Origin: Candidatus Dojkabacteria bacterium
GTDB lineage: Bacteria > Patescibacteriota > Dojkabacteria > B142 > JAFGMG01
NCBI GenBank assembly: GCA_016927655.1
Contig: JAFGMG010000001.1
Location: forward strand, 179,599-243,598
Length of the DNA: 64,000 nt
Reading direction: 5' to 3'
Made by a program: the position numbers and the translations under genes
Part shown: piece after piece, positions 31,182 through 49,008 of the stretch
How positions within the stretch are numbered: position 1 is the stretch's first letter
Layout: each line of letters opens with the position of its first letter
Notes under the pieces: generated by a model
Databases searched by the model: none
The model's input: only the letters and a program-made list of their open reading frames with translations
Told to the model about the DNA's origin: nothing

Positions 31182-32296
31182 ATTAAAATTTCGTCTAGGT
31201 CATATATTGTGCTCATCTTTCCGGATAAAACACTTGTAAAATTGGGGCTTTTATTTGCTTGTACTATAACAGTAGGCCTTGAGTCATCTACTTCAGAAGA
31301 CTGAAGAACCGGCTTAAGTGTGTACAATGATTCTTTATAATTATAGCTTATTTCCGGAACCAAATATTTTTTCGCTAACTGGCTCATATATTTCCATGCT
31401 GTTGCTGGTTTTCTGCTCTGCTTTACCCCTTTGTTATTAGGCTTAAGGAATTTAAAGTCCGGGAGATCTGCTTTGCTGCTCTTATGTGGAGTAAATGAAA
31501 CAGATGTCAGAGAGTGGTTCTTAGAAAGGCCAAAAGGCATTAGAGAAAAAAAAGGACCATCCATCACAGTCAGTCCGATATTTTTAATGTTGTTGCTCAC
31601 ATCACAGATAATTACTTCGCAGTATTCATACTTTATCGGGAAGTATTCATAGCCGAAGACCTTTAGCACTTCGTTTATCCCGGCATACGTTAAATTCAGC
31701 ACATTTGGAGTAAGAATCTTCTCGCCTGTATTTAGCCTCAAAAAGTATTTATCATTTTTTATTATCGCTTTCTTTACGATCGTATTTAAAGAGATGTCAG
31801 CCTTCTCGTATTTTGATAGTTCACTTAAGAAATACTCCCTAATCTTGATTGCGTCATAAGAATACTCATGTGTTTTAAAAGCCGCTTCTACAAACCCCTC
31901 ATTAAAGTATTTTGATGAGTCTATCTCTTCACACTCAACTCCAATATTGCTGCAGAACTTTTTATAACTTGCTGCATTTGTATGCGAGAAGACACTCGAT
32001 ATTGCATATATTTTGGAAAATTCTTTATTGATTGCAAAATCAAAATCTCTGGAGAATTTTTCGAAGTATTGAATTGTTTTTTGTGCTGTTGCAACACTTC
32101 GCGGATAATGATACCCCTTATGCAGCCTTGCCTGATTTACATACGAGCCCGCATTCAATGGAAGATTGGTTTTTTCAATCATTAAAACACTACGACCTTT
32201 CCTGGCTAACTTCTCGGCAGCATATAAGCCAAATATTCCAGCCCCGATTATTACATAGTCATATTCTTTTTGATTATAATATTCCTCTGTAGGCAT
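31178..32296 (-). CDS. FAD-dependent oxidoreductase (Rossmann GxGxxG; UDP-galactopyranose-mutase/amine-oxidase-like N-terminus)
   Basis: YDYVIIGAGIFGLYAAEKLARKGRSVLMIEK is a classical FAD dinucleotide-binding motif. Weak resemblance to Glf, and only at the N-terminus. Confidence 0.6.
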   Translation of the reverse strand: MPTEEYYNQKEYDYVIIGAGIFGLYAAEKLARKGRSVLMIEKTNLPLNAGSYVNQARLHKGYHYPRSVATAQKTIQYFEKFSRDFDFAINKEFSKIYAISSVFSHTNAASYKKFCSNIGVECEEIDSSKYFNEGFVEAAFKTHEYSYDAIKIREYFLSELSKYEKADISLNTIVKKAIIKNDKYFLRLNTGEKILTPNVLNLTYAGINEVLKVFGYEYFPIKYEYCEVIICDVSNNIKNIGLTVMDGPFFSLMPFGLSKNHSLTSVSFTPHKSSKADLPDFKFLKPNNKGVKQSRKPATAWKYMSQLAKKYLVPEISYNYKESLYTLKPVLQSSEVDDSRPTVIVQANKSPNFTSVLSGKMSTIYDLDEILI

Positions 32297-32383
32297 AAAA
32301 TGCAGTCTGGGGCAGAATTAACTCTTAGTATTTTTAAAGGCTTTGTAGTATCATTAGCGCACGTAATCATAACACGAATCCTT

Positions 32384-35305
32384 ATGAAAAATAAGCAACC
32401 GAAGGTAAGCGTGATCATAACTTACTTTAACATGCAAAACTATATTGATTTTGCATTAAAAAGTGTTTTTAAACAAACTTATCCTAATATTGAAATTATT
32501 CTTGTCGATGATGGGTCGCCAGATATCGAAGCAATAAAAAAACTCGAGAAACTTCAGACAACTTATAAAAATCGCGTCTTATTTATAAACCAAAAAAACA
32601 AAGGTCTGCCTGCTGCTAGAAACACCGGGATAAAAAGCTCCAAAGGAGATTTTCTGTGTTGTCTCGATGCCGATGATATTCTTGAACCTAGTTTTATTGA
32701 AAAGGCAATCGAGAGTTATAAGACAAATCCCGAAGTTTCAATTGTCACTTCCTGGATGTCAACATTTGGAGAATATGAAACAACGTATCAATTTAATTCT
32801 ACTGATTTAAGAGATCTACTGAAGGAGAATATCCTCCATGTCTCCTCAATATTTAAGAAAGATGTGTGGGAAAAAGTCGGCGGCTTTGATGAAAATTTTA
32901 TTAACGGCTTTGACGACTGGGAATTTTGGATAAATGCAGCCAAGCATGACTTCAAATGGATGATTATTCCAGAAGTCCTTTTCAATTACAGGATAAGGAA
33001 AAACTCGATGAGTTCCCAGATTGAAAAGAACACCGCAAGGGAAATCGGCTTATATAACAGGCTTTATACAAAGCATATCAGCTTATTTAAAAAATATGCT
33101 CTCGATATTTTAATATCCAAGGATTTCAGCATAAGCTGGCATAAAGGGCAATTGCGTATCCTGAAAGAAAGCCAACCTAAAAATGAGGAGAATAAAGATA
33201 AACAAGAAGAATCTGCCAATATTGACGAAACCCTGGAGATTGTCAAAACAAATAGCCTGATTCTCCAACGTTTTAATGGGGTGCTTAATAGGACGGAACG
33301 TTATCTAAAAATGTTTGGACTATATATATTGATTCGAATAGTCCGTCGCACAAGACATATTTTGAAATATAAAGAATATCCATTCTTACCTAAGCGTTAC
33401 GGCCAAATGGCAGATACCGGGATTTATAACCGCAACAAGCCATTGGTGAGCGTCATTATTCCCTGCTTCAATTATGGAGCATACATCCAGGAAGCTGTCT
33501 CAAGTGTCAAATCACAATCCTGGAACAATCTTGAGATAATAATTGTTAACGATAAATCAACTGAAAAGGAAACGATAAATATATTAAAGAAACTAAAAAA
33601 AGATCCTGGGATAAAACTGCTTGAGAATAAAGAAAATTCCGGAGTTGTATATACAAGAAACAGAGGAATAAAGGAAGCCCGGGGAAAATATATTTTATGT
33701 CTTGACGCAGATGACAAACTTGATCCATCTTATATTGAAAAATGTATCTGGGTTTTTGAGAGGAATCCGCAAATTGGAGTTGTTTATTCAGATTTGCAGA
33801 TGTTCGGGAATTCAAATGATTTTTATAAATTTGGAAATTTTGATATAAGGGCGCTTATGAAGTGGAATCAAGTTACAACAGCGGCAATGTTTAGGAAAGT
33901 CTGTTGGGAACAGACTGGTGGATATAAAGAGGAAATGCGTTATGGGCATGAGGATTGGGAGTTGTGGCTTTCGATAGCTGAAAAAGGCTGGGAAGGCTAC
34001 AAAATACCCGAGCCATTATTTTTTTACCGCACACACTCCAAATCAAGTCTAAGTCATAAAGCCTTAGAAATAAATAACAATCTAATTTCAAGAATTAAGA
34101 CTCTACATACTCCCCTTTATTCACTCCCAAATCCATACAAGATTCGTAAAAAAGTTTTTCCACTGAAATCGGTCAAAGATAATAAAATTAACTATGATAA
34201 ACCAGAAAGCAAGAAGAATGTGGTTTTACTTTTCGTACCCTTTGTAATAGCCGGTGGCGCCGAAAAACTATGGGCGAATATTGCTCAGGAAATCAGTAAA
34301 TCCGGTTACAAGATTTTAATTATTGGAACAAATGAAGCCGAACAGGAAATATATCCCGAACTTCTTGAAAATACGATTGGTATCTTTAATCTAAAAAAGT
34401 TTGCCGCTAAAAAAGATTGGGAAAAATTTATTTTCTCACAGATTAAAAAATACTCCGTACGAAACGTAATAATAAGCAATAATGCCTACGTTTATAAGAA
34501 CACTAAATTGCTGAAAGCTTTAAGAGCAAAAGACATAAAAGTCATGGATATTGTATACAATGATAGTGCATATGGATTTCTGGACCAATCAATAAAAATC
34601 GATAGACTTTTAGACAGACATTTCGTAAACAATCCAGAAATTATTAAATCTTATAAAAAAGCAGGAATAGACCCTCAAAAAACTAACTTCATACCCTCAT
34701 GTGTAAACCTGAAAAATTACGATTATAAAAAATACAATTCAGTAAAGTTAAGGACAAAATTCAAGGCGAATAGAGATAATTTCTTGATTACCTATATTGG
34801 AAGATTATCGCCAGAAAAAAATGTCGAGTCTTTAGTACAAGCAATCAGTGACCTGCGAGTACAAAAAAGCCCACTTGGTAAAAGAATCCGGCTCAATATA
34901 ATAGGCAGCGGGATGCAGGAAAAACATCTTAAAAAATTAGCCAAAAAACTATCTATTTCTAAACAGGTCCATTTTTTTCCCTTTACAAGCAAAGTTCAAG
35001 AATTCTATGCTGCAAGTGATCTTTTTGCTCTTGTCTCGACAATTGACGGGTTTCCTTTGACTATAATTGAATCCGTGGCAATGGGGGTTCCTGTTCTTGC
35101 TACGAATATTGGCGCAAAAAAGAACCTGCTCAAACACAAGCAGAATGGCTATTTGATAGAAAGCCCTGATAGATTTGCAATCTCGAAGGCACTTGAAGAT
35201 ATATATAATAATGATTATTTCCTTGATAGAGCCTCAATTCGTGAATCAGCAAAAGAATACAACGTGGATAAAGTAGCTGGGATTCTACTAAAAGAGTTAA
35301 AGTGA
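32384..35305 (+). CDS. tri-domain GT2-GT2-GT4 glycosyltransferase (intact paralog of 23377..26283)
   Basis: GT2 #1 VSVIITYFNMQNYI..LVDDGSPD..CLDADD; GT2 #2 VSVIIPCFNYGAYI..IVNDKST..CLDADD; GT4 C-terminus EX7E FPLTIIESVAMGVPVLAT. The track ORF starts at 32270, overlapping the divergent gene; the ATG at 32384 (MKNKQPK) is the more plausible start. Confidence 0.8.
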   Translation: MKNKQPKVSVIITYFNMQNYIDFALKSVFKQTYPNIEIILVDDGSPDIEAIKKLEKLQTTYKNRVLFINQKNKGLPAARNTGIKSSKGDFLCCLDADDILEPSFIEKAIESYKTNPEVSIVTSWMSTFGEYETTYQFNSTDLRDLLKENILHVSSIFKKDVWEKVGGFDENFINGFDDWEFWINAAKHDFKWMIIPEVLFNYRIRKNSMSSQIEKNTAREIGLYNRLYTKHISLFKKYALDILISKDFSISWHKGQLRILKESQPKNEENKDKQEESANIDETLEIVKTNSLILQRFNGVLNRTERYLKMFGLYILIRIVRRTRHILKYKEYPFLPKRYGQMADTGIYNRNKPLVSVIIPCFNYGAYIQEAVSSVKSQSWNNLEIIIVNDKSTEKETINILKKLKKDPGIKLLENKENSGVVYTRNRGIKEARGKYILCLDADDKLDPSYIEKCIWVFERNPQIGVVYSDLQMFGNSNDFYKFGNFDIRALMKWNQVTTAAMFRKVCWEQTGGYKEEMRYGHEDWELWLSIAEKGWEGYKIPEPLFFYRTHSKSSLSHKALEINNNLISRIKTLHTPLYSLPNPYKIRKKVFPLKSVKDNKINYDKPESKKNVVLLFVPFVIAGGAEKLWANIAQEISKSGYKILIIGTNEAEQEIYPELLENTIGIFNLKKFAAKKDWEKFIFSQIKKYSVRNVIISNNAYVYKNTKLLKALRAKDIKVMDIVYNDSAYGFLDQSIKIDRLLDRHFVNNPEIIKSYKKAGIDPQKTNFIPSCVNLKNYDYKKYNSVKLRTKFKANRDNFLITYIGRLSPEKNVESLVQAISDLRVQKSPLGKRIRLNIIGSGMQEKHLKKLAKKLSISKQVHFFPFTSKVQEFYAASDLFALVSTIDGFPLTIIESVAMGVPVLATNIGAKKNLLKHKQNGYLIESPDRFAISKALEDIYNNDYFLDRASIRESAKEYNVDKVAGILLKELK

Positions 35306-36154: not shown

Positions 36155-37537
36155 CTATTTCTTGATTTTGAAACCTAATTTACGCAATTTATCAATTACT
36201 TCTTCATTGCCCAGATCATAAACTGAAGTTTTTTTAAGCAATTGATTGATTTTTGTTTCAATGTCTTTTGATCTTGTAATATCCTCTCCGTTTACAACAA
36301 AAATCTGGTTGTGGCGGGTTTTTTTGACATGTTCTTTATCAAAATATAGCTCTTCATACATTTTCTCTCCGGATCTCAGCCCGATTGTCTTTATTTCTAT
36401 ATCTTTCTTTGCAAGTCTTACCATCAATTCGGCCAATTCCCTGACTTTTATAGGATCCCCCATATCGAGAACAAATATTTCTCCATTATTGCTCAAAATT
36501 GCTGCCTGGATTATTAATTGAGCCGCCTCTTCTTTTGTCATAAAAAATCTTGTTATTTCTTTGTGTGTTAGCGTAATAGGACCGCCTTTTTCTATCTGCC
36601 TTTTGAACAGCTGGACTACACTTCCATTGCTCTCAAGGACATTTCCAAACCTGACGGAAGAAATTTTGGTGTTGCTTTGTTTTCTGCTGCGATTTTGTAA
36701 AAGTATCTCCACAACCCTCTTCGTTGTACCCATGACATTTACGGGATTGACAGCCTTATCTGTAGAAACATTTACAAAACATTTCACTTTGTGTTTAATT
36801 GCTGTATCAATTAAATTTAACGAACCAAGAACGTTGTTATTAACGGCTTCCAGGCTATTTTCCTGCATTAGAGGCACATGCTTATAAGCAGCAGCATGAA
36901 AAACAAAATCCGGTTTATGTTTAGAAAATATCTGCTCCAATCGTTTTTTATCGCGGATATTTGCAATATAGTAGGTAACACTCCTTTTATTTCCTACTTC
37001 ATGCTGTAGATAGAAAATTCCGCTTTCCCAGAAGTCTACGCATATTATTTCTTTCGGCTTTAAAAGCAATACCTGCTGGACCAATTCAGAGCCAATTGAA
37101 CCAGCTGCCCCCGTGATAAGGATTTTCTTTCCCTCAATCTCTTTTTTAGCCAAAAACAGATCCTGCTTTACAGGTTCACGCCCGATTAAATGCAAAATAT
37201 CAACATCTCGAAGATCGTTAATTGATACCTCTTCGTCTGAAATGATCCGGAAAGATCTTGGAACAATTAAAAGATGGACTTTTTTTGATTCGACAGAGTT
37301 GATAAATTTTCGCACCTTCTCAGGCGAAGCTGAGGGAATTGAGAAATATATATCTGTGATTTTCTCTTTGCTTATTAACATATTTACATCAGAGAGATTC
37401 CCCAGTTTTTTAAAACCAGCATTGCTTTTGATATCAGCGTCATCGACAAAGCCCACAACCTTGTATCCATGCTTTTTAAGATTTCTTGCTAGGGAGCGCC
37501 CTGCAACTCCGGCTCCTACAATTAATATTCGCTGCAT
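36155..37537 (-). CDS. UDP-GlcNAc 4,6-dehydratase, CapD/PglF/WbpM family (Polysacc_synt_2)
   Basis: ILITGAAGSIGSELVQQVL and the downstream motifs are typical of the family; N-terminal CoA-binding-like domain (ILIVGAGVAGRSLARNL). 460 aa. Confidence 0.8.
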   Translation of the reverse strand: MQRILIVGAGVAGRSLARNLKKHGYKVVGFVDDADIKSNAGFKKLGNLSDVNMLISKEKITDIYFSIPSASPEKVRKFINSVESKKVHLLIVPRSFRIISDEEVSINDLRDVDILHLIGREPVKQDLFLAKKEIEGKKILITGAAGSIGSELVQQVLLLKPKEIICVDFWESGIFYLQHEVGNKRSVTYYIANIRDKKRLEQIFSKHKPDFVFHAAAYKHVPLMQENSLEAVNNNVLGSLNLIDTAIKHKVKCFVNVSTDKAVNPVNVMGTTKRVVEILLQNRSRKQSNTKISSVRFGNVLESNGSVVQLFKRQIEKGGPITLTHKEITRFFMTKEEAAQLIIQAAILSNNGEIFVLDMGDPIKVRELAELMVRLAKKDIEIKTIGLRSGEKMYEELYFDKEHVKKTRHNQIFVVNGEDITRSKDIETKINQLLKKTSVYDLGNEEVIDKLRKLGFKIKK

Positions 37538-37551
37538 AATGAGATAAATAA

Positions 37552-38322
37552 CTACATTAAGCTTGTAATGAAATCATCAACAATTTCTCCAGGTTCTCCC
37601 ATCTGTTCTATCCTGCCGCCTTTTAACCAAATCACTCTATCAGCTAGATTTTTAACAGACTCCAAATCGTGCGAAACATACAAAACAGTAACTCCAGTAT
37701 TTATTAGTTCGGAAATTTTACCCATACTCTTTCTGCTAAATCCCGCATCTCCAACTGCAAGAACCTCATCAAGCAGATATATATCTGCTTTTGCTTGAAT
37801 TGCTATTGCAAAAGCTAATCGCACTGCCATACCGCTTGAATAGTTTTTTATCGGTGTATCTGCAAATTCCTCCACCTCGGCAAAAGCAAGTATTTCCTGA
37901 ACTTTTGTCCTGAGGAATTTCTTAGACATTCCAAGGATTGTTCCATTCAAAAATATATTTTCTCTAGCAGAAAGTTCAGGGTTAAAACCTACCCCAAGCT
38001 CTAAGAATGGAACAAGTTGCCCGTGAATTTTGATCTCTCCTTTGTTTGGAGCATATATTCCGGCAATTAATTTGAGCAAGGTGCTTTTCCCACTTCCGTT
38101 TTTTCCGACAATACCAACGAACTCTCCCTTTTTCACCGTGAAAGTTATATCGCTTAATGCATCAAATTTTCTTCCCTGCTTTTTGAAAAGTTTCCAGGGT
38201 TGAAGAAAATATCCCTTGAAGCTATTGATCCTTTCATCTGGTATCCAAAAGGATTTATCAACGTCTTTTACTTCAAGAACAACATCATCATTTTCTTTTT
38301 GAGTTTTGCTGTTGAATATCAT
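37552..38322 (-). CDS. ABC transporter ATP-binding protein, Wzt/TagH/KpsT type (polysaccharide or teichoic-acid export)
   Basis: Walker A GIVGKNGSGKSTLL; signature YSSGMAVRLAFAIAI; Walker B DIYLLDEVLAVGD. Confidence 0.85.
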   Translation of the reverse strand: MIFNSKTQKENDDVVLEVKDVDKSFWIPDERINSFKGYFLQPWKLFKKQGRKFDALSDITFTVKKGEFVGIVGKNGSGKSTLLKLIAGIYAPNKGEIKIHGQLVPFLELGVGFNPELSARENIFLNGTILGMSKKFLRTKVQEILAFAEVEEFADTPIKNYSSGMAVRLAFAIAIQAKADIYLLDEVLAVGDAGFSRKSMGKISELINTGVTVLYVSHDLESVKNLADRVIWLKGGRIEQMGEPGEIVDDFITSLM

Positions 38323-38344: not shown

Positions 38345-39544
38345 TCATTTACCCTTATATAGTTCTAATAAAAATAACTCAAGCTGACTGCCCAAACTAT
38401 CAAGACTATAGTTTTTTTCAACCCAGTTTTTTGCATTTTTTGCGATCTCTCCTCTTTGTTCTGATCTGATAAAGTTTCTCAACACTTCATACCACTTCTC
38501 GCTCGATTCGACAATCATCCCAGTTTCCATGTTTTTAATTACCGAAGCTAGATCGCCCACCGCACTTGCTACAGTCGGGACTTCACACAAGGCTGCTTCA
38601 AGAAATTTGATTTCGCTTTTTCCTCGATTAAACTCGGTATTTTCAAGCGGGAGCAAATTGATATCAATACCCGCTAAAGTTTCCATATATTTTTCTCGGC
38701 TCATAAACGGCAGATGTTTTATTCTTGAGCTCAGACTACCTGTCGCGAATTTTCTTTTGTCGATTCTGCCGCCAAGCCACAGCTCAAAATTTTCGTCTTC
38801 TTCAAGAATATTTTTGACAGCAGGCCAGATAATTTCAAAGTCTCGATCATGCGTTTCTGAACCACTAAAATAGCCAAGTATTATTTTTTGATTTTCAGCC
38901 TTCAATTTCAGCCGTTTTCTTTTTTCATCTAAAATCCCATTTCTGTTTACGAAAACCTCGCCTTGAATATGTTTTTTCATATCTTCAGCTAGATATTTTG
39001 TACTTGCGATCCCAGCGTCAACCTCTTGCATTAGTGCCAGCATTCCATCTGCCCTTTTTAATAAAAGTTCTGCATCCTCAGAGAAAAGGGCTTTTGTATA
39101 ATCTAAATTCTCAATTAAATCCCTGCGATAAACAAAATCATCCACACTAAAAATCGTTTTAATCCCTCTTTGCCTGGCCTGCTCAAAAATTCCACAGACA
39201 GCACTTAAAGGCGTCCTATAAAAAACAATGTATTTATAATTGGCAACATCCACCCCTTCAGCAAATTTTTCAAAAACAATATCTACCTGCCAGCCTCTCA
39301 TCTCAAGCTGCCTGGCAGGAATTTCACATCTGTAATAAGACGTAGCATTTTTGGGTTCTCCGCTGACAAAGAGCAGACTTTCAACATTCAAGGCTTTCTT
39401 GCCCTTTTTTTGGGGTAAATGGTAATACCTTCCTAGTCGTATTTTCCTGTCAAAAAAAATAAACAGCCTCTTTATGAATTCTCCAACTCCATAATCTCGA
39501 ATTGTCTTATATGATTTATTAAGAAATCTTAACATCAAACTCAT
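38345..39544 (-). CDS. GT-B fold glycosyltransferase (GT4-like)
   Basis: C-terminal EIKFLEAALCEVPTVASAVG is an EX7E-like region. 399 aa. Confidence 0.55.
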   Translation of the reverse strand: MSLMLRFLNKSYKTIRDYGVGEFIKRLFIFFDRKIRLGRYYHLPQKKGKKALNVESLLFVSGEPKNATSYYRCEIPARQLEMRGWQVDIVFEKFAEGVDVANYKYIVFYRTPLSAVCGIFEQARQRGIKTIFSVDDFVYRRDLIENLDYTKALFSEDAELLLKRADGMLALMQEVDAGIASTKYLAEDMKKHIQGEVFVNRNGILDEKRKRLKLKAENQKIILGYFSGSETHDRDFEIIWPAVKNILEEDENFELWLGGRIDKRKFATGSLSSRIKHLPFMSREKYMETLAGIDINLLPLENTEFNRGKSEIKFLEAALCEVPTVASAVGDLASVIKNMETGMIVESSEKWYEVLRNFIRSEQRGEIAKNAKNWVEKNYSLDSLGSQLELFLLELYKGK

Positions 39545-39558: not shown

Positions 39559-40359
39559 TTAGAAGAATTCTGCAACTTTCTTTACGCGGCTTTTAAAAAA
39601 TGCTCTTCCGATCAAAACAAACAATAAACTGATGATAAAAATCAACAGTACTTCATATAGATAGCTTATCTGCCCATTGATAAAAGTATTTCTTGCAGCT
39701 TGTATCAAAATATACAAAGGATTGAGTTCAAAAATCTCCCTTGCCGGAATTTCCTGAACAAAGAATATTGAGATTCTTTCTGGAACCAGGCTTATTGGGA
39801 AAAATATAGCCGACGCATAAAAAAGAAGCTGAAGTCCAATTTCTGTAATATGAAGTAGGTCTCTAAATCTTATGAAAATTACGCTTGTGAAAAAAGAAAT
39901 CCCCAGAGTCAAAATAGTCAGAGTTAATAGCACAAAGGCGAAGTAGGCTATCAGATCAAGTTCGAGATACACATCATTAAATAACAAAAATAATGCAAGA
40001 ATTAGCAGGTTTATTATAAGATTAATTCCTGCTAATACTTGATTGCTGTATACTGCGATAGTACGATTGAAATTTACCTTTAGGATGATATGCGCCTTTT
40101 CAAGCAGCGAATTCATCCCCATGACAATAGACTCGTTGAAATAGTTATATATAATTATTCCAATGAGCAGGTAAATCTGAAATGATTTTTGGTCCTGACC
40201 TCTTGAAACATTTGAAAAAACAATATACAGCATTCCAAATATCAGAAATGGCTTTAGAATTGCCCAAAAGAAACCAAGCAGGGAGTCATTATATTTAAGC
40301 TTGAAATTGGTTCTTACAAGCTCTATCAATAAATCTTTGTCGTTTGATGTGCGTTCCAT
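39559..40359 (-). CDS. ABC-2 type transporter permease (Wzm/TagG)
   Basis: 266 aa, six predicted TM helices, the ABC-2 topology, adjacent to the Wzt/TagH-like ATPase. Confidence 0.75.
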   Translation of the reverse strand: MERTSNDKDLLIELVRTNFKLKYNDSLLGFFWAILKPFLIFGMLYIVFSNVSRGQDQKSFQIYLLIGIIIYNYFNESIVMGMNSLLEKAHIILKVNFNRTIAVYSNQVLAGINLIINLLILALFLLFNDVYLELDLIAYFAFVLLTLTILTLGISFFTSVIFIRFRDLLHITEIGLQLLFYASAIFFPISLVPERISIFFVQEIPAREIFELNPLYILIQAARNTFINGQISYLYEVLLIFIISLLFVLIGRAFFKSRVKKVAEFF

Positions 40360-40398: not shown

Positions 40399-41955
40399 AT
40401 GAACATGTACGATTATAAAGCTTTACTGAAAATTAATAAACCAGCAAAGTTCTTTCTGTCCGTTCTGATTTTCGCCAATTTGCTTGCAGCTTTTTCTATA
40501 ATCGTGCTTTCTCTTGTCCCTATTGAAAATCTAATCGGGAAAGACCCGATAACTGGAGACTATTTCCTATTTTATAAAACACATGGCTTCAAAACAACAT
40601 TCAATCTTGCGTGGGGAATTTATGGATACAGAACATTACAACTGAGATATTTGTTCCTTTTGTTTTTCAGCATAGCAGGCTTTTCAATAGGACAACTTTC
40701 TTATCCCAAATTTTTTAAAAGAATTTATGACAAATTAAGCAACATCTCGAAAATTAATTTAAATATTAAGGCACAATATCTTCTAGGACTTTTTATTGTC
40801 CTTTTGGTATTAGTCTTACTTAGAACCGATCCTGTAAAAAATGCATATTTTGCAGATGGTTCACAGCTCCCTAGAGAAATCCGGGAGGGGATGATATTCG
40901 CTGCAGAAATTCTCACTACTTTTGAATATGTTATCTTTGATAAATTCCTTTCAAGTTTTTATCCAACCCTCACGGCTTCTATGTCAATTGAAATAAGTGC
41001 GATTTTTAATGGCTTGATCTATGTACCGGCAGTGTATTTTCTCTCCAGAATACTAGCCAAAAAAAAGCAGGATTTCCTTCTTTTATTTTTGGGAATTATT
41101 TCGACTATTCCAATAATTAACTTTTTGGGATACATCGAGACAACTTCTTTGTGCCTTGCCATGATAGCAGCTTATATTTTATTTGGCCTTGAGTATCTAC
41201 GAAAGACCGAAATTAAATATTTTATGCTTTCATCGGCAGCTTTAACTCTTGCCATACTTGCTCATACCGGTGCAATTTTACTGGCTCCATCTTTTGGGCT
41301 GTTGTACCTAAAGGGGAATTTACAGAAATTTAAAAAAGCAGATATTTCAAAGCTCATATTTAACCCTATAAAAGCAGCTGTTATAGGAGGATTGGTGCTC
41401 TTACCTCTACTTCTGATTTCCTACAATTTATTCTATGCAAAAGGAAATGTGGGAAACCTTCAAGGAGGGGGAGATGGCATACAGTTTGTACCATTGTCCT
41501 TCGATTATGCTAACCCAGTATCGCAATTCGTCTATTATGACATGATATCTTTATGGCATTTTATTGATATTGCCTGGGTAATCGCTCTTTCAGCGACATT
41601 CCTGATCCCGGTAAGTGTAATTTATCTCTTAGCGCATTTCAGAAAAATCAATAAAAAAGCAATTTTGGACATGATATGGAATCCATCGTATCTGCACTTT
41701 CTTCTACTCACCTCACTTTTCACGTTTTTAGTACCATTATTGTGGAATCACGATTTTGGAGTCTGGGGTGATTGGAATATCTCAGCGACCTTTATGTTTC
41801 CAAGTCAAGTTCTGACCTGGTATCTTGCAACCCAGCTACTTGATAAACTAAAATCAAAGCAAGAAATGCCCCAAATAAGAGTCATCCTGATTAAGATAAA
41901 TATGATCTTGATGCAACTCTTGTTTTTCTTCGGACTATACCTGCAGCTAAAATAA
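40399..41955 (+). CDS. large polytopic membrane protein (candidate GT-C-like glycosyltransferase/polymerase)
   Basis: 518 aa, more than 10 hydrophobic helices, no recognisable soluble enzymatic motif. First of three consecutive such genes. Confidence 0.5.
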   Translation: MNMYDYKALLKINKPAKFFLSVLIFANLLAAFSIIVLSLVPIENLIGKDPITGDYFLFYKTHGFKTTFNLAWGIYGYRTLQLRYLFLLFFSIAGFSIGQLSYPKFFKRIYDKLSNISKINLNIKAQYLLGLFIVLLVLVLLRTDPVKNAYFADGSQLPREIREGMIFAAEILTTFEYVIFDKFLSSFYPTLTASMSIEISAIFNGLIYVPAVYFLSRILAKKKQDFLLLFLGIISTIPIINFLGYIETTSLCLAMIAAYILFGLEYLRKTEIKYFMLSSAALTLAILAHTGAILLAPSFGLLYLKGNLQKFKKADISKLIFNPIKAAVIGGLVLLPLLLISYNLFYAKGNVGNLQGGGDGIQFVPLSFDYANPVSQFVYYDMISLWHFIDIAWVIALSATFLIPVSVIYLLAHFRKINKKAILDMIWNPSYLHFLLLTSLFTFLVPLLWNHDFGVWGDWNISATFMFPSQVLTWYLATQLLDKLKSKQEMPQIRVILIKINMILMQLLFFFGLYLQLK

Positions 41956-43283
41956 TGAGAATAATAGATAAAATCAACTCGTTTTATAAAACTCATAGAT
42001 TACTATGCTTGATTACTTTGGGGCTTGTGATTCGATTGATACTGTCTTTCGTAGCAAGACATACCTGGGATTTTTGGCTGAATTATGAAACGGTTGACCA
42101 GATGTGGGCAATGGGCGGCCCTAAGCATATATATGAAGCGGGAGAGATAATGATAGAAGGAGCTGGACAGATATGGTTTTACGGTCCGGTTGCAACTTTT
42201 GCGTTAGCTCTGCCATCACTAATTGTTGGGGGCTTCAATTCCTGGAATCACTTACATGTTTTCATTGGCCATCTTCCTTATTTGTTTTTTGAAACCATTG
42301 CTTTGCTTTCTTTTATGAAACTTACCCCTGCTAAATGGCAGAAACGTTTTATATTTATTTTGTGGCTTGGACCATTCTGGATTTATCTAAATTATGCTTA
42401 TGCTCAAATTGACATAATTGCAGCCTCCCTAAATCTGGTTGCTATGGCCTTTCTGATCAATATCTCACCTGAAAAATTTGCTCTCACCAAAAAGAAAATT
42501 TTATATTTAGCACTTGCAGGATTGTTTTGCGCACTTGCTTTGCACTTTAAGACCGGACATTTAATCGGAGTAGCTGCCTGTTATTGGGCTGTAATAATTG
42601 AAACAAAAAAATTATCCATCAAAGATATATTTTTAAAGCTGAGTATTTTTACTTCCTCATTGGTGTTTTTTGCAGGACTGATTGCTTTTGCTTCATGGAA
42701 ATTCTTTCCCGGATATTATTCTGCCATTACAGGAGGACCTACTAGCTACATTTTTGCAGATAATGCATTTGGGATTTCAACTATCTGGACAATAATAATA
42801 GTATTCATTATCTTGGCGATTATTCTTGGCACCCAGAAATATTTGTCGAAATCTTTGACACTTCCTAACTGGAAAATTATCTGTACTGAATTATTTGCAA
42901 TTGTGATATTTTGCTTATTTCTAGGAATGGATTTTCACCCCCACTGGCTTGTCTGGAGTCTGCCCGTATGGGTATTAATTGCGAAATATTCCGAGATTAC
43001 AAAATATTTTTACAGACTTCTCCTAATATATGGCACTTACGTTTTGCTCACGTACGACTGGGTGACTTCATATCGCACATTCGATATGATTTTGTACAAG
43101 GTTGTCCCAAAATATGATGTCTATAATTTTATCTGGCAAAAGAATGTAATTTCAGCACTTTCAATCAGATCTGAAACCGGTTTTCTTTTTTCCTTTATTT
43201 TCACAGCTGTTGTTGCAATTATTCTACTTTATCCCTATTTAAATGAAAGAACGAATAAACAAGCTAATCAAAAAATTAAATAA
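41955..43283 (+). CDS. large polytopic membrane protein (candidate GT-C-like glycosyltransferase)
   Basis: 442 aa with many TM helices; its start overlaps the previous stop (ATGA at 41952-41955). Confidence 0.5.
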   Translation: MRIIDKINSFYKTHRLLCLITLGLVIRLILSFVARHTWDFWLNYETVDQMWAMGGPKHIYEAGEIMIEGAGQIWFYGPVATFALALPSLIVGGFNSWNHLHVFIGHLPYLFFETIALLSFMKLTPAKWQKRFIFILWLGPFWIYLNYAYAQIDIIAASLNLVAMAFLINISPEKFALTKKKILYLALAGLFCALALHFKTGHLIGVAACYWAVIIETKKLSIKDIFLKLSIFTSSLVFFAGLIAFASWKFFPGYYSAITGGPTSYIFADNAFGISTIWTIIIVFIILAIILGTQKYLSKSLTLPNWKIICTELFAIVIFCLFLGMDFHPHWLVWSLPVWVLIAKYSEITKYFYRLLLIYGTYVLLTYDWVTSYRTFDMILYKVVPKYDVYNFIWQKNVISALSIRSETGFLFSFIFTAVVAIILLYPYLNERTNKQANQKIK

Positions 43284-45084
43284 AAATTTGTTTCTGTTTA
43301 TTACATTATTCTTCTTTGTCGGGACTTTCGAGCTGATTTTCATTGAACAGATGAAGCGGATTGGTGTGCACTATTTGATAGCCTTTTCACTCTCACTGAT
43401 TCCATTATATTTAGTTTTTCTTATCAAGTGGCATATTCCCGAGATCAAATTTCCTGTTCAAAAAGAAAAATTTGAACCTGCTTTTATCAAATTTTCTAGT
43501 TTGGGGATAGTGTTTTTGTTCTACGCGTTAATCTGCGTTCCAATATTTTTTGGCGGGAATAGATTTGAGATGTCAGTAGATTCTTTCTTATACCACAATA
43601 TGATTACACATAGTCTCACTTCTGTTACAAGTGTCTTCAGCCTCAATACATACGCCTCCGTATATGCAATCAGTTTTCAAAGAGGGGCTGAGGCAATAGT
43701 TGCTCTGACACAAATAGCTTTTTTAGGCAGACTCACCCCTCTTGAAGCTCAAAGTCTGGTAATTGGTTTTTTGTTTTGTCTCTCACATTTAAAAATGAGT
43801 AAAGTAGTCGGCGCGCTTGAATCTATGGTTCTTCATATTCTTATTCTTTCCGTTCCGACAGTGTTTCTGCAGTCACTCACTAATTATATCGATATTTTTC
43901 AGATACCTATATTGATTATTGCTTTATCTAGCTTGCTGCTTGCAAAATCCAAAAAGGAGATATTTATCGCTTTAATGTGGTTTGGGATATTTGGGGCAAT
44001 CAAACTCCCGGCACTTATGATTTCCATTCCCTTGGTCGTATTGATTTCATGGTACCAACACAAAAAACTTAATCTTTTATATCTTCTTTTTGCAGGATTA
44101 ATAATTGGCCTGATCTCAGCCCCGTTACTTCTTATAAATACCTTTGAACTTGGCAGCCCCTCCGCACCATATTCATTTCTTTTCTTTGGAGGGTGGGATA
44201 TTTGGAGTACGAATTTACTACTTAATCGCCCAGGAGTTTTCGAGAAAACATTTTTTGGAATAAAACTTAACAACTCCATTTTTTTGAGATTTATTTATTC
44301 GCACCTAAGACAATTTCTTATAATGAATCAAACTTATGATTCAAGACTAGGCGGGGGCGGGATGGTAAATGTATTCACACTTCTTTCTTTTCTAGGAATT
44401 TTGCTCGCAAAATTTACAAAGCAGATTAAATTACTAATAAAAAAGCCCCGGTATAAAATTTCGGTTTTTAATAAAATCGATGTGATAATTATCATCCCGA
44501 CAATTTTTTCTTTCTTTGTTATCCCTGATACCTACTGGTTTCGATACATGATAATCCCATTTACACTAATGATTTTCTACATAATGTATTATCTCAGCAA
44601 AATAAAATATTTACCCCTAAAACAAGGAATCTTGATAATTTTGGCTTTTATAGGTCTGGCTGGATTCTTTACCCTTAGGAACTTTTTAATTCCTCCAAGT
44701 GCTAGCAATCGGCAATTAGACACTTTTATAAATTTCCTGCATCATGATCCGGATCTCGAAATTCAATTAGAAGATTTCCGCAGTCAGACAAACGACTTTA
44801 AAACTGTCTTATTCATTGTAGATACAAAAAACTCCTCTGGAAGCATGGTTGGGAATTATGTAGCAGCCCTAAATCCATCTGCTACAATAACGTACAAAGA
44901 TGTGCAGAATATTCACGATTTTAATAAAGAAATCGCTCATTATGACGCAGTTATTTATTCCAGCACAACTTTTCAGCTTGATGATTACCTGGCGAAAAAG
45001 GCCGAATTCGAACAGGATGGTTATGGCGTAATATTTCTTGAATCAGTAGCACATCCCGATGCTCTTGTAATAACCGAAAATTAA
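43243..45084 (+). CDS. large polytopic membrane protein with a ~120-aa C-terminal soluble domain (candidate GT-C-like glycosyltransferase)
   Basis: 613 aa. The N-terminal ~480 aa are hydrophobic; the C-terminal region is hydrophilic (HHDPDLEIQLEDFRSQTNDFKTVLFIVDTKNSSG...). This architecture recalls Emb/Aft arabinosyltransferases. Confidence 0.5.
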   Translation: MKERINKLIKKLNKNLFLFITLFFFVGTFELIFIEQMKRIGVHYLIAFSLSLIPLYLVFLIKWHIPEIKFPVQKEKFEPAFIKFSSLGIVFLFYALICVPIFFGGNRFEMSVDSFLYHNMITHSLTSVTSVFSLNTYASVYAISFQRGAEAIVALTQIAFLGRLTPLEAQSLVIGFLFCLSHLKMSKVVGALESMVLHILILSVPTVFLQSLTNYIDIFQIPILIIALSSLLLAKSKKEIFIALMWFGIFGAIKLPALMISIPLVVLISWYQHKKLNLLYLLFAGLIIGLISAPLLLINTFELGSPSAPYSFLFFGGWDIWSTNLLLNRPGVFEKTFFGIKLNNSIFLRFIYSHLRQFLIMNQTYDSRLGGGGMVNVFTLLSFLGILLAKFTKQIKLLIKKPRYKISVFNKIDVIIIIPTIFSFFVIPDTYWFRYMIIPFTLMIFYIMYYLSKIKYLPLKQGILIILAFIGLAGFFTLRNFLIPPSASNRQLDTFINFLHHDPDLEIQLEDFRSQTNDFKTVLFIVDTKNSSGSMVGNYVAALNPSATITYKDVQNIHDFNKEIAHYDAVIYSSTTFQLDDYLAKKAEFEQDGYGVIFLESVAHPDALVITEN

Positions 45085-45145
45085 AGTTGTGCTAAAAAAC
45101 CTTTTACCTTAGAATTAAACGCTCTTACTTTTTAAAAAACTTCGA

Positions 45146-46183
45146 ATGTCAACATATTTTATCACTGGCGGTTCTGGTTTCCTGGGGATTAACTTGATTA
45201 GATACTTACTCAAGAAAGGCCAGAAAGTGGTCAACTACGACATTGTTGAATTCGATTACCCAGAAAAGAACAAAATTAAATCAATAATCGGGGATATTAG
45301 AGATTATCCAAGCCTTGAAAAAGCCATGAAGGGTTCCGATATAGTCGTCCATTGCGCTGCCGCACTTCCTCTTTATTCCAAAGAAGACATCATGAGCACA
45401 GATTTAGATGGCTCTAGGAACGTTATGGATGCGGCTTTTAAAAATAAAGTGAAACGGGCTATCCATATTTCATCTACCGCGGTATACGGCATTCCAGATC
45501 ATCATCCACTTTTTGAAACTGATAAACTAGATGGAGTCGGGCCTTATGGAGAAGCAAAAGTAAAAGCAGAAAAAATTTGCGAAGAATATAGGGAGAAAGG
45601 AATGATCGTACCAATCATTAGGCCAAAATCATTTATCGGTCCAGAGCGGCTTGGAGTTTTTGCTCTGTTCTATGACTGGGCAAAAGATGGTAAAAATTTC
45701 CCTATGATTGGTAGCGGAAATAATAAGTATCAGCTACTTGATGTTGAGGATCTCTGCCAGGCAATATACCTTGCAGCCACAAAACCAGAAAAAGTCGCCA
45801 ATGATACGTTCAACATTGGGGCAAAAGAATTTACTACAATGAAAGAAGATTATCAGGCAGTTCTCGATAAAGCCGGACATGGGAAAAAAATTATCGGATT
45901 CCCAGCATGGCCGATGATTATGGCTTTAAGAATTCTTGAATTTTTCAAACTCTCCCCATTATACAAATGGGTTTATGAAACTGCATCGAAAGATTCTTTT
46001 GTTTCAATAGAGAAAGCGGAGAAAAAACTCGGATATAAACCAGAATACTCAAATAAAGAAGCCCTCCTTAGAAATTATGAGTGGTATTTATCAAATCTGG
46101 ATAATTTTAAAAATACCAGCGGGGTATCACACCGCGTACCTTGGAAACAAGGAATTTTAGGATTTATTAAAAAATTCTTCTAA
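45146..46183 (+). CDS. NAD-dependent epimerase/dehydratase (extended SDR)
   Basis: YFITGGSGFLGINLIRYLL; PYGEAKVKAEKI YxxxK motif. 345 aa. Confidence 0.8.
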   Translation: MSTYFITGGSGFLGINLIRYLLKKGQKVVNYDIVEFDYPEKNKIKSIIGDIRDYPSLEKAMKGSDIVVHCAAALPLYSKEDIMSTDLDGSRNVMDAAFKNKVKRAIHISSTAVYGIPDHHPLFETDKLDGVGPYGEAKVKAEKICEEYREKGMIVPIIRPKSFIGPERLGVFALFYDWAKDGKNFPMIGSGNNKYQLLDVEDLCQAIYLAATKPEKVANDTFNIGAKEFTTMKEDYQAVLDKAGHGKKIIGFPAWPMIMALRILEFFKLSPLYKWVYETASKDSFVSIEKAEKKLGYKPEYSNKEALLRNYEWYLSNLDNFKNTSGVSHRVPWKQGILGFIKKFF

Positions 46184-46184
46184 A

Positions 46185-47060
46185 ATGGCAAAAATAATAT
46201 ATAGAATTAAACTGTTGCGCCCCCATCAGTACCTAAAGAATCTTTTTATCTTTTTACCTCTTTTCTTTGCGGCAGATATTTTCGAAATCAACCTCTTGAT
46301 AAAAGCAGGGGTAGCTTTTATTGCTTTCTCATTAACTGCTAGTGCTTGTTACGTGTTCAATGATTATCTGGATATTGAAGCTGACAGGAAGCATCCGAAA
46401 AAGAAAAAACGCCCCCTTGCTTCAGGGAAGATAAGCAAAAAAGAAGCTCGTATTTATATGGCAATTCTGCCTGTTATAGGTTTTATAATAGCGGCTCCTC
46501 TTGGAATCGCAGCAATTGCTATTCTGGCATGGTATTTCGTTCAAAATATACTCTATACCATCAAACTAAAACACATACCGATCATTGATGTTTTTATAAT
46601 TGCTTTGGGTTTTGTTATTAGAATCCTTATTGGTGGTGCTGCAACTGGAGAAGAAATTTCCATGTGGATTATTATTATGACATTTCTGCTTGCTCTATTC
46701 CTGGGACTGGCAAAAAGAAGAGACGATGTCGTTCTTTACAAAACTACAGGTAAAAAAATGCGAAAAGCTGTAGATGGATACAACTTAGTTTTCCTTGATA
46801 CCACAATGATTATGATGACCTCGGTCGTACTGGTTGCCTACATAATGTACACGGTCACTCCCGAAGCGATAGCGAAATTCGGGACAGACAAACTCTACAT
46901 AACTACAATCTTTGTCCTTCTTGGAATCATGAGATATCTCCAAATTACACTTGTTGAAAAGAATAGTGGTTCACCAACCGAAATTCTCATGAAAGACCGA
47001 ATAGTACAACTTGCATTAACCGGCTGGCTGCTCACTTTTGGAATTATAATCTACGTGTAG
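46185..47060 (+). CDS. UbiA-family prenyltransferase, decaprenyl-phosphate 5-phosphoribosyltransferase-like
   Basis: NDYLDIEADRKHPKKKKRPLASG is the UbiA Asp-rich motif followed by RPLxSG; about 8 TM helices. The context (HAD, rpiB and prs directly downstream) points to PRPP as the donor. Confidence 0.75.
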   Translation: MAKIIYRIKLLRPHQYLKNLFIFLPLFFAADIFEINLLIKAGVAFIAFSLTASACYVFNDYLDIEADRKHPKKKKRPLASGKISKKEARIYMAILPVIGFIIAAPLGIAAIAILAWYFVQNILYTIKLKHIPIIDVFIIALGFVIRILIGGAATGEEISMWIIIMTFLLALFLGLAKRRDDVVLYKTTGKKMRKAVDGYNLVFLDTTMIMMTSVVLVAYIMYTVTPEAIAKFGTDKLYITTIFVLLGIMRYLQITLVEKNSGSPTEILMKDRIVQLALTGWLLTFGIIIYV

Positions 47061-47063
47061 TGC

Positions 47064-47666
47064 ATGAAAAATAAATCAACAATTGCAGTATTTGATTTTG
47101 ATGGGACTATTACAAATCGAGACAGTTTGATCGATTTTATTATTTTTTCAAATGGCTATTTGAAATTCCTAGTTGGAATATTCGCGAATTCTCCTTTTTT
47201 GATTTTGTATAAACTCGGGCTTTATCCAAACGACAAAACTAAGGGAAAGTTCTTCAGCTTTTTCTTTAGAGGAATGAATTCTCAGGAATTTATTGATAAA
47301 TCACAAAAGTATTCTCTGGAAAAGCTTGGAAGAATAATTCGGCCTGAGGCACTTGATCGTATCAACTGGCACAAAAAGCAGACTCATAAAGTCTTAGTAT
47401 TGAGTGCATCTGCTGAAAACTGGGTGAGGCCGTGGGCAAAAAAAGAAGGACTTGATGTGATTGGCACCAAAGTTGAAATTTCCAATTCAAAACTCACCGG
47501 CAATTTCGCCACGAATAATTGTTTTGGGCAAGAGAAAGTGCGAAGGCTGCTCGAGAGATACCCAGCAAGAGATCAGTATACTATATATGCTTATGGTGAC
47601 AGCAAAGGAGATAGGGAGTTACTCGAACTTGCTGATCATGCTTTTTACAAAATGTTTGGTGAATAA
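47064..47666 (+). CDS. HAD-superfamily phosphatase (HAD-IB/phosphoserine-phosphatase-like)
   Basis: IAVFDFDGTIT is HAD motif I (DxDGT); YGDSKGDRELL is HAD motif IV. Confidence 0.75.
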   Translation: MKNKSTIAVFDFDGTITNRDSLIDFIIFSNGYLKFLVGIFANSPFLILYKLGLYPNDKTKGKFFSFFFRGMNSQEFIDKSQKYSLEKLGRIIRPEALDRINWHKKQTHKVLVLSASAENWVRPWAKKEGLDVIGTKVEISNSKLTGNFATNNCFGQEKVRRLLERYPARDQYTIYAYGDSKGDRELLELADHAFYKMFGE

Positions 47667-48090
47667 AATATATCTAGCCTCAGATCATGGTGGACTTGGA
47701 TTAAAGATGAAAATAATCGAATATTTAAAGGAGGCTGATATTAAAATAGAGGATCTTGGCACAAATTCATCTGATTCGGTGGACTATCCCGATTTTGCAC
47801 ATAAACTTTGCAAAAAAGTCCTTAGAAACAAGAGTAGCCAGGGAATTTTATTCTGCGGAACAGGGCTTGGTATGTCCATTGCAGCAAATAGATATAAGGG
47901 CATTAGAGCAGCGCTGTGCCATGATCATTTCACAGCGGCAATGAGTAAAAAGCACAATGATTCAAATGTTTTATGCATTGGAGGCAGAACAACGGGAGAA
48001 GAAACAGCCAAAGATATTGTCAAAACCTGGCTGGAAAGCACCTTCGAGGAAGGGAGGCACACAAGAAGATTGGGAAAAATCGAAATTTAA
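47659..48090 (+). CDS. rpiB: ribose-5-phosphate isomerase B
   Basis: (M)NKIYLASDHGGLGLK...GILFCGTGLGMSIAANR...ALCHD...VLCIGGR is the RpiB/LacAB signature. The track ORF (47461) runs antisense through the HAD gene. A GTG at 47659 (overlapping the HAD stop) or the ATG at 47638 gives a ~143-150 aa RpiB. Confidence 0.75.
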   Translation: MNKIYLASDHGGLGLKMKIIEYLKEADIKIEDLGTNSSDSVDYPDFAHKLCKKVLRNKSSQGILFCGTGLGMSIAANRYKGIRAALCHDHFTAAMSKKHNDSNVLCIGGRTTGEETAKDIVKTWLESTFEEGRHTRRLGKIEI

Positions 48091-48111
48091 AATTTTTTAC
48101 AATCTCTTCAA

Positions 48112-49008
48112 ATGAAAAATGCAATGATAATTTCAGGTTCGTCGAATAATTCATTAGCGAAATCAATCTCGAAATATTCAAAAATACCAATCGGTAAAAC
48201 TAAAGTCGAGAATTTCCCAAACAAGGAAATTAGAATTTTGATAAAGGAAGATCTGAAAGAAAAAAATGTGTTTCTAGTACAAGCTACAAACGGCAGAGTA
48301 AATAGCTACATCATTGAACTTGCTCTACTTGCTGATGCAGCTAAAAGGTGTGGAGCAAAAAAAATCATAGCTATTATTCCATGGCTAGGATACTCACCCC
48401 AGGATAAAGTTTTTAGAAAAGGCGAACCATTATCTTCGAAGGTGATAGTAAAAATGCTTGAAAGTACTCAAATCGATAAGTTTATTTTAATCGATGTTCA
48501 CTCAAAGCTTGTTTTAAAGATGTTTACTAAACCTGTCGTACATTTAAGCGCAATGCCTGTTTTTGTCGAGCATTTTAAAGGCAAACTTGAAAAAACATCC
48601 TGGGTTTCTGTCGCACTCGATAAAGGTGCGCGGGAAAGAGCAAAGCTTTTCTCGAAAGAGCTAGGACTTCCGCTGGTTCAATTTGATAAGGAGCGGGACT
48701 TGAAAACCGGTGAGGTAAAATTCAAAAAACTCGAAGGGAATGTGAAAGGAAAAAATGTAATTTCATTTGACGATTTTGTAAGTACTGGCGGGACAAGAAT
48801 CCAGGCTAGCAAGCTGCTGAAACAACAGGGAGCAAAAAAATATATTGACTGTGTAACTCACCTAATCGTCCCGGAAACTACAAGAAAATTCCCGGCTTCA
48901 AAGATCGATGAGATTTATATTACCAACACAATACATTTGGATACAAAATTTAAAACTAAAAAATTACATGTACTAGATATTGGGAAATTAATTGCGAGAG
49001 GTATTTAA
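48112..49008 (+). CDS. prs: ribose-phosphate pyrophosphokinase (PRPP synthetase)
   Basis: IISGSSNNSLAKSISKY N-terminus; IPWLGYSPQDK; the PRPP-binding loop FDDFVSTGGT. Collinear with Prs across 298 aa. Confidence 0.85.
   Translation: MKNAMIISGSSNNSLAKSISKYSKIPIGKTKVENFPNKEIRILIKEDLKEKNVFLVQATNGRVNSYIIELALLADAAKRCGAKKIIAIIPWLGYSPQDKVFRKGEPLSSKVIVKMLESTQIDKFILIDVHSKLVLKMFTKPVVHLSAMPVFVEHFKGKLEKTSWVSVALDKGARERAKLFSKELGLPLVQFDKERDLKTGEVKFKKLEGNVKGKNVISFDDFVSTGGTRIQASKLLKQQGAKKYIDCVTHLIVPETTRKFPASKIDEIYITNTIHLDTKFKTKKLHVLDIGKLIARGI

Follow-up and report, generated by a model that had tools for sequence, protein, structure and literature searches.

In a 64,000-nucleotide stretch of contig JAFGMG010000001.1, which belongs to a metagenome-assembled genome (MAG) of Candidatus Dojkabacteria and is called the window at its full length, a block of eight genes at positions 40399 to 49008 is here interpreted, with a probability of roughly 0.7, as a system of the three-component type by which a pentofuranose is transferred from a lipid carrier to a surface glycan. 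The block is a new example of the pentofuranose systems described by Kelly, Duong, Nothof, Lowary and Whitfield (PNAS 2024; PMC11127046) and not a new pathway. An earlier note on this DNA had read the block as a donor pathway for a lipid-linked pentose, which was right in outline, and had regarded such a route outside Actinobacteria and rhizobia as novel. The latter did not hold, since the route has been proposed for the pilin of Pseudomonas aeruginosa and biochemically shown for Citrobacter O antigens. Nor is it rare, as relatives of the UbiA-family gene of the block were found in 40 genomes from many phyla.

In the prototype systems of Citrobacter youngae O1 and O2, open reading frame (ORF) 15 encodes a fusion of a HAD phosphatase with a polyprenyl phosphoribose synthase of the UbiA type and yields lipid-phosphate-linked ribofuranose from phosphoribosyl pyrophosphate (PRPP), ORF14 encodes a predicted flippase, and ORF12, the founder of glycosyltransferase family GT136, adds the sugar to the exported O antigen (PMC11127046). 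In serotype O2 a single GalE-like short-chain dehydrogenase/reductase (SDR), ORF13, shifts the side chain from ribofuranose to xylofuranose. Among the candidate systems named in the same study, which also cites the pilin arabinosylation pathway of P. aeruginosa, an ORF13 homolog is present where the glycan contains xylofuranose and DprE1/DprE2 homologs are present where it contains arabinofuranose; one case in which the HAD phosphatase is split from the UbiA-type protein was noted, in a phage (PMC11127046).

Organization of the gene block

The block consists of the following genes:

40399-41955, + strand: M1, polytopic membrane protein, 518 aa
41955-43283, + strand: M2, polytopic membrane protein, 442 aa
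43243-45084, + strand: M3, polytopic membrane protein, 613 aa, modelled with a GT-C fold and a C-terminal alpha/beta domain
45146-46183, + strand: extended SDR, 345 aa, Pfam Epimerase
46185-47060, + strand: predicted UbiA-superfamily polyprenyl-phosphate 5-phosphoribosyltransferase (PPPRS or decaprenylphosphoryl-5-phosphoribose (DPPR) synthase type), 291 aa, NF008977
47064-47666, + strand: HAD-IB protein, candidate 5'-phosphoribose phosphatase, 200 aa, Pfam HAD, TIGR01490
47638-48090, + strand: rpiB, ribose-5-phosphate isomerase B, 150 aa, TIGR01120
48112-49008, + strand: prs, ribose-phosphate diphosphokinase (PRPP synthetase), 298 aa, TIGR01251

All eight ORFs are located on the same strand and are tightly packed, as had been described before. 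M1 and M2 share 1 nt, M2 and M3 overlap by 41 nt, and gaps of 61 nt, 1 nt and 3 nt follow between M3 and the SDR gene, the SDR and UbiA genes, and the UbiA and HAD genes, respectively. The HAD gene overlaps rpiB by 29 nt, assuming the rpiB start at 47638 that was set by the gene caller on the matching public contig, and rpiB is separated from prs by 21 nt. In the public annotation of the MAG, M1 to M3 are hypothetical proteins (JW978_01215, JW978_01220 and JW978_01225). A consensus scan across the block found no excess of promoter-like or terminator-like sites over shuffled sequence, which neither supports nor splits an operon; the genes of the block are presumably co-transcribed.

The UbiA-family phosphoribosyltransferase

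Judged by its family membership and by the identity of its active site, the UbiA-family gene encodes a phosphoribosyltransferase of the DPPR-synthase type. The protein scored 239.5 bits against NF008977, the equivalog model of decaprenyl-phosphate phosphoribosyltransferase (cut-off 234), and far less against the competing NCBIfam models of haem O synthase (54 bits) and of UbiA, the 4-hydroxybenzoate prenyltransferase (41.8 bits). Its top match in the PDB was Rv3806c (8j8j; E 1.5e-35), and the next family, DGGGP synthase, followed at E 1.6e-08. The residues of Rv3806c that bind PRPP, Mg and the lipid phosphate have been listed in the structure paper, according to which the phosphoribose contacts are not conserved among prenyl-transferring UbiA enzymes (PMC10994848). 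In a HMMER alignment, 13 of 15 of these functional residues were identical in the window protein (R12, K18, Y56, N59, D60, D63, D67, K73, R76, Y124, K129, K177 and K194), and two were altered, namely Q135, which corresponds to N121, and Y157, which corresponds to F143, the second change being present in some mycobacteria as well. Due to these scores and residues a grouping with MenA, UbiA or haem O synthases, which the earlier note had named as the outcome that would speak against its proposal, fails, and the proposed phosphoribosyltransferase identity is borne out.

A homolog with 54.5% identity was additionally observed at positions 4871-5734 of GenBank record MT837543.1, an unannotated 6.6-kb sequence from human faeces labelled as 'Bacteriophage sp.'.

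Related loci and the HAD-IB phosphatase candidate

A scan of one genome per species yielded 40 loci with UbiA relatives of 46-61% identity, in which ORFs were called and compared with each other and with the proteins of the window. The hosts comprise Nitrospirota, Desulfobacterales, Syntrophales, Campylobacterota, Spirochaetota, Leptospirales, Marinicella, Bacteroidota, Saccharibacteria and others. In 29 of the 40 loci, from many phyla, an ortholog of the HAD-IB protein (36-51% identity) is encoded no more than about 5 kb away from the UbiA homolog, and the loci without it are mostly short or truncated contigs. The window protein matches Pfam HAD (E 5.6e-34) and TIGR01490 (118 bits, cut-off 98.3), and the HAD-IB motifs I (DFDGT) and IV (GDSKGD) are intact in its sequence. 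It is therefore a candidate 5'-phosphoribose phosphatase and, as had been proposed, a conserved partner of the transferase. The phosphatase step is taken by HAD-IB proteins in most bacteria and by a PAP2-type enzyme in Mycobacterium tuberculosis; a HAD protein in place of a PAP2-type phosphatase, to which the earlier note had pointed, is the usual state in such systems and no oddity of the block.

In about half of the 40 loci the gene order is UbiA homolog, GtrA, FAD_binding_4 oxidase (about 440 aa), classical SDR (243 aa), polytopic protein (490-613 aa) and HAD protein. In a Campylobacterales locus these DprE1/DprE2-type gene identities were confirmed by Pfam and the polytopic protein matched PMT_2, and in Marinicella the same gene order was found with a polytopic gene that received no class assignment. 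Loci of this DprE1/DprE2 type are arabinofuranose donor pathways. A second arrangement, devoid of an epimerase, was found in Desulfobacterales, where the UbiA gene is followed in turn by the genes of a small SMR/EamA-like protein, of a polytopic protein of 570-587 aa that resembles M3, and of the HAD protein.

Conservation of the entire block, the absence of which the earlier note had named as speaking against its proposal, was not observed: M1 to M3 are almost without relatives, prs was linked to the UbiA gene in none of the 40 loci, and rpiB was linked in a single one, from Saccharibacteria. The latter locus (a MAG; L020, 7387-12503) encodes, in this order, rpiB, a Wzy_C-family protein, a TPR protein, the UbiA homolog, an SDR with 75% identity to that of the window and a HAD protein, and holds no relatives of M1, M2 or M3. 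A Wzy_C protein is also encoded in a Syntrophaceae locus with an SDR ortholog (L045).

rpiB and prs

Both proteins score as standard members of their families (RpiB 184 bits against TIGR01120, cut-off 138.65; Prs 261.5 bits against TIGR01251, cut-off 113), so that the enzyme identities assumed for a supply of PRPP stood, while the module dedicated to this supply was not established, its linkage not being conserved in the genome loci. It is slightly favoured that rpiB and prs are housekeeping copies which lie beside the block by chance or through genome compaction. Consistent with this, next to the linkage counts given above, a Prs-like match, and a weak one, was present in just 1 of 80 metagenome loci of the SDR family. 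The overlap of the HAD gene with rpiB and the short gap to prs, by contrast, suggest co-transcription, and both loci from the candidate phyla radiation, i.e. those of the window and of Saccharibacteria, have rpiB nearby, with no other such loci among those compared. Most likely, the two genes are the genome's ordinary copies.

The extended SDR and its linkage to the UbiA-family gene

The SDR matches Pfam Epimerase (E 5e-41), and carries the NAD-binding motif GGSGFLG (GxxGxxG) at residues 8-14 as well as a catalytic triad (S109/Y134/K138, with the YxxxK motif), both of which are invariant across its family. The C-terminal tail HRVPWKQGIL is shared by the window protein with orthologs as distant as those of Halostagnicola and Rhizobium. 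Among the 40 genome loci, the sole carriers of an SDR of the window type are those of Saccharibacteria (75% identity) and Syntrophaceae (67%), in which it adjoins the UbiA homolog and DprE1/DprE2 are absent. Further orthologs, outside the genome survey, were found by a translated search of plasmid records. Those of the haloarchaea Natronococcus, Haloterrigena and Halostagnicola share 49-52% identity with the window protein (49% in Halostagnicola), and a UbiA-type gene adjoins the ortholog in Halostagnicola and in one Natronococcus record. In Streptomyces sp. SAT1 the ortholog (42% identity) is located immediately upstream of a UbiA-type gene, and in Rhizobium sp. CCGE531 (35% identity) it lies about 5.5 kb from a HAD-UbiA fusion gene; the Rhizobium record is among the candidate systems named by Kelly et al. 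(PMC11127046).

In metagenomes, where the SDR family is very abundant, 467 matching stretches were obtained, and the best 80 loci (L052-L131), with 69-78% identity to the window SDR, were examined. Linkage was counted in the 44 loci in which the SDR gene is flanked by 1.5 kb or more on each side, among which a UbiA-family gene was located within 9 kb in 19 (43%) and adjacent in 12 of these 19; a HAD-IB gene near the SDR was found in none of the 44. The linkage of the UbiA gene to the HAD gene and to the SDR gene is conserved, and that of SDR and UbiA is far above chance and extends over two domains of life, though it is not obligatory.

We infer lipid-linked ribose to be the substrate of the SDR and epimerisation, at C2 or C3, to be its most likely reaction. 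Searches of the 64-kb window by tblastn with DprE1 and DprE2 from two related loci returned nothing significant; the SDR would therefore fill the role of these two enzymes, which is plausible by analogy with ORF13 of Citrobacter youngae O2, the published precedent for the epimerase function that had been considered for this gene.

In two of the loci with SDR orthologs, the phosphatase slot appears to be filled by unrelated families, namely by a PHP-domain protein in Halostagnicola (L049, 5830-6510) and by a protein of the endonuclease/exonuclease/phosphatase family in Streptomyces sp. SAT1 (L051, 11286-12662).

The membrane proteins M1 to M3

With about 9-11 hydropathy peaks apiece, M1, M2 and M3 are strongly hydrophobic, and M3 contains in addition a soluble C-terminal domain of about 120 aa, in agreement with the earlier description. 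Searches against Pfam and NCBIfam with default settings, against Pfam at E 10 and against the PDB with sequences and profiles gave no meaningful family membership for any of them; in particular, they do not belong to the Emb/Aft families by sequence, and the likeness is at the level of the fold. No mutual relationship of the three was detected by BLASTP or hhalign. When their profiles were compared by hhalign with the other GT-C protein of the window (18958-20298) and with 22 groups of polytopic neighbours of UbiA homologs, the only relationship obtained was that of M3 to the Desulfobacterales group (97.3%, E 2.5e-11, 311 columns). When 1.84 billion representatives were searched exhaustively by HMMER with M2 and M3, 2 relatives of M2 and 6 of M3 were retrieved, to which word-indexed searches added 1 relative of M3 as well as 4 relatives of M1. 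M1 and M2 are accordingly very rare families.

The M3 profile matches the polytopic proteins encoded between the UbiA and HAD genes in four Desulfobacterales loci (hmmsearch E 4e-15 to 3e-8), and these loci encode no other polytopic candidate glycosyltransferase. Six residues (D113, Y117, H118, D217, D366 and R368) are invariant across the M3 relatives and the Desulfobacterales group. The motif with D113 is located in a loop after a transmembrane helix and would lie where GT-C enzymes carry their catalytic acid. In a fold search the structure model of M3 showed the GT-C fold, as found in AftA, AftB and AftD. Its C-terminal domain models, with modest confidence, as a flavodoxin-like alpha/beta domain and is unlike an Ig-like carbohydrate-binding module, so that the Emb/Aft-like C-terminal domain suggested before was not recovered. 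M3 is the best candidate for the pentofuranosyltransferase.

M1 and M2 were modelled as one fused chain, in which the match to the GT-C fold can be assigned to at least one of the proteins and not to a given half; at least one of the two is thus predicted to have this fold. M2 is the more typical of the two and a probable GT-C glycosyltransferase; an invariant RHxWDF motif immediately follows its first helix and precedes a loop made up of short helices. M1 may be either a GT-C glycosyltransferase or the missing flippase. Hence, of the earlier proposal that all three membrane proteins are GT-C consumers of the donor, the models uphold the fold for M3 and for at least one of M1 and M2.

The gene contexts of the M1 to M3 relatives are uninformative or unrelated to UbiA. 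One M1 relative (28% identity; L004, 10001-11527, and L005, 2479-4005) is flanked by two small cupin genes and has a Mu-like portal gene a few kb away, a context that has nothing to do with glycan synthesis.

The neighbouring surface-glycan locus

The block diverges from the gene of an ABC-2 permease at the end of a 26-kb glycan locus (13841-40359), which also holds a UDP-GlcNAc 2-epimerase and other sugar-modifying enzymes. Its features, starting next to the block and including glycosyltransferases of the GT2 and GT4 families, are:

39559-40359, - strand: ABC-2 permease, Pfam ABC2_membrane
38345-39544, - strand: GT4 glycosyltransferase, Pfam Glycos_transf_1
37552-38322, - strand: ABC ATPase, precomputed Pfam ABC_tran match of the same gene on the public contig
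36155-37537: CapD-like dehydratase
32270-35305: GT2-GT2-GT4 protein, 1011 aa
30261-31181, - strand: GT2 protein of GtrB-like architecture, 306 aa, with two C-terminal hydrophobic helices
26325-27440: weak match to a pyruvyl-transferase
23377-25854: GT2-GT4 protein, 825 aa
18958-20298, + strand: fourth GT-C-type gene, matches to PMT_2, PMT and DUF2142
18006-18968, + strand: LPG_synthase_TM gene, overlapping the fourth GT-C-type gene by 11 nt
15693-16847: TagF-like glycerophosphotransferase

The divergent ABC transporter is the probable exporter and the GT4 protein a probable builder of the acceptor polysaccharide, and the product of this glycan locus is the likely acceptor of the pentose. The SDR-UbiA pairs of Halostagnicola (L049) and of Streptomyces sp. 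SAT1 (L051) likewise have LPG_synthase_TM genes for company, which makes the LPG_synthase_TM protein of the window a flippase candidate; by this analogy it may translocate the lipid-linked pentose.

Proposed mechanism

In the proposed scheme all substrates and products, the epimerised carbon, the acceptor and the flippase are predictions. RpiB and Prs would supply PRPP, from which the UbiA-family enzyme would move ribofuranose-5-phosphate to a polyprenyl phosphate on the cytoplasmic side of the membrane. The HAD-IB protein would strip off the 5-phosphate to give polyprenyl-P-ribofuranose, and the SDR, possibly anchored at the membrane by its conserved C-terminal tail, would epimerise the sugar by a transient oxidation and reduction with bound NAD, resulting in a xylofuranose or arabinofuranose donor. 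The donor would then be flipped outward across the membrane, where M3, and probably M2 and/or M1 as well, would transfer the pentose onto a polysaccharide that is presumably built by the neighbouring glycosyltransferases and exported via the adjacent ABC transporter.

Observations at odds with the scheme and alternative interpretations

Several observations weigh against this scheme. The GtrA and SMR/EamA-like proteins of the related loci gave no tblastn match in the 64-kb window, and no small multi-helix ORF of the MATE, SMR or GtrA flippase type was found there. In a comparison with a fused HAD-UbiA protein, the window HAD protein aligned to the HAD domain at motif I alone (BLASTP E 0.029), so that its phosphatase role rests on conserved gene order and not on orthology. 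The structure model of the fused M1 and M2 chain has low confidence.

With respect to the SDR, 25 of the 44 well-flanked metagenome loci contain no UbiA gene within 9 kb, in spite of 69-78% identity to the window protein, and the SDR gene often stands alone among unrelated genes. Furthermore, its best NCBIfam similarities, all far below the cut-offs, are to lipid-acting SDRs (HpnA-like, OleD), and systems without an epimerase exist in Desulfobacterales and in Citrobacter O1. These findings would fit a system in which polyprenyl-P-ribofuranose is the final donor, the SDR having a different lipid or a nucleotide sugar of the glycan locus as its substrate. This is considered unlikely, given that just 1 nt separates the SDR gene from the downstream UbiA gene in the window, that its orthologs lie beside a phosphoribosyltransferase gene in four distant lineages, archaea included, and a few kb away from one in a fifth (Rhizobium), that a linkage of 43% in metagenomes is far above chance for one gene family, and that neither the window nor the Saccharibacteria and Syntrophaceae loci with a close SDR ortholog contain DprE1/DprE2.

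The remaining points concern the consumption of the donor. No UbiA gene was found on the contigs of the M1, M2 and M3 relatives from elsewhere, most of which are short, and none of the 80 metagenome loci carries an M1 to M3 relative next to the SDR ortholog. The glycan locus encodes a fourth GT-C-type protein, the gene of which overlaps the LPG_synthase_TM gene (18006-20298), and the GT2 protein at 30261-31181, which has the architecture of polyprenyl-phosphate hexosyltransferases (GtrB/DPM1 type) with its two C-terminal helices, could feed another lipid-linked sugar to some of the GT-C proteins. Together with the 61-nt gap between M3 and the SDR gene, this would be compatible with a donor made as proposed, the pentose of which is used by, for instance, the GT-C protein at 18958-20298, while M1 to M3 belong, as GT-C enzymes or other membrane proteins, to the neighbouring polysaccharide locus and use a lipid-linked hexose provided by the GT2 protein. 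Such an arrangement is regarded as quite unlikely: homologs of M3 are encoded between UbiA and HAD in the four Desulfobacterales loci, with no second polytopic candidate glycosyltransferase there, and M1 to M3 run in the same direction as the donor genes, to which they are tightly packed. The absence of UbiA beside the M1 to M3 relatives is weak evidence because most of the contigs are short.

Comparison with known systems

The window block and the Citrobacter three-component systems have in common a UbiA-type transferase, a HAD-family protein, which in the window is a candidate phosphatase, a single SDR, which is optional in Citrobacter, and a GT-C protein with an extra C-terminal domain, and both adjoin a polysaccharide locus that depends on an ABC transporter. 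They differ in that the HAD protein is encoded by a separate gene in the window and constitutes an N-terminal domain in Citrobacter, that the window is devoid of a MATE, SMR or GtrA flippase gene, that it holds three unrelated polytopic genes instead of one GT136 gene, and that its host is a Dojkabacteria bacterium. Moreover, the C-terminal domain of M3 models as alpha/beta and not as the beta-sandwich of GT136, whereby ORF12 and ORF13 were compared by their description only.

With the decaprenylphosphoryl arabinose pathway of M. tuberculosis (Rv3806c, Rv3807c, DprE1/DprE2 and Emb/Aft), the block shares the family of the first enzyme, including the 13 of 15 functional residues kept, and the GT-C fold that M3 is predicted to have in common with AftA, AftB and AftD. 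The DprE1/DprE2 clusters of Gram-negative bacteria, the type proposed for the D-arabinofuranosylation of the P. aeruginosa pilin (TfpW), contain the closest counterparts of the window UbiA (46-61% identity) and HAD (36-51%) proteins, in Campylobacterota, Marinicella, Nitrospirota and others. In contrast to the window with its single extended SDR of 345 aa, they encode GtrA and the pair of a FAD oxidase and a 243-aa classical SDR. A plasmid locus of Halostagnicola larsenii resembles the window in that genes of the DPPR-synthase and GT-C types adjoin that of an SDR with the same C-terminal tail, and differs from it in its PHP-domain phosphatase, in an LPG_synthase_TM gene within the locus and in a GT-C protein of Pfam Mannosyl_trans4. 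No published function was found for this SDR-phosphoribosyltransferase-GT-C locus.

Implications

As the logic of the pathway was published in 2024, the finding extends a known scheme and opens no new one. What it adds lies in the host lineage, in the two further orphan polytopic proteins M1 and M2, in the lack of a recognisable flippase and in two protein families. M3 and its Desulfobacterales relatives represent a new sequence family in the GT-C position of pentofuranose systems, and the SDR family, which is strongly conserved, may be a one-enzyme alternative to DprE1/DprE2. A more far-reaching joint reading is tentative: the SDR family would comprise widespread single-enzyme polyprenyl-P-ribofuranose epimerases that stand in for DprE1/DprE2 in bacteria and haloarchaea, M1 and M2 would each found a GT-C family unless one of the pair were a flippase of a new type for the lipid-linked pentose, and the block would give the first pentofuranose-decorated envelope glycan in the candidate phyla radiation. 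To our knowledge, almost nothing is known about the envelope glycans of candidate phyla radiation bacteria, including Candidatus Dojkabacteria, and the block predicts that one such bacterium adds ribo-, xylo- or arabinofuranose to an exported polysaccharide.

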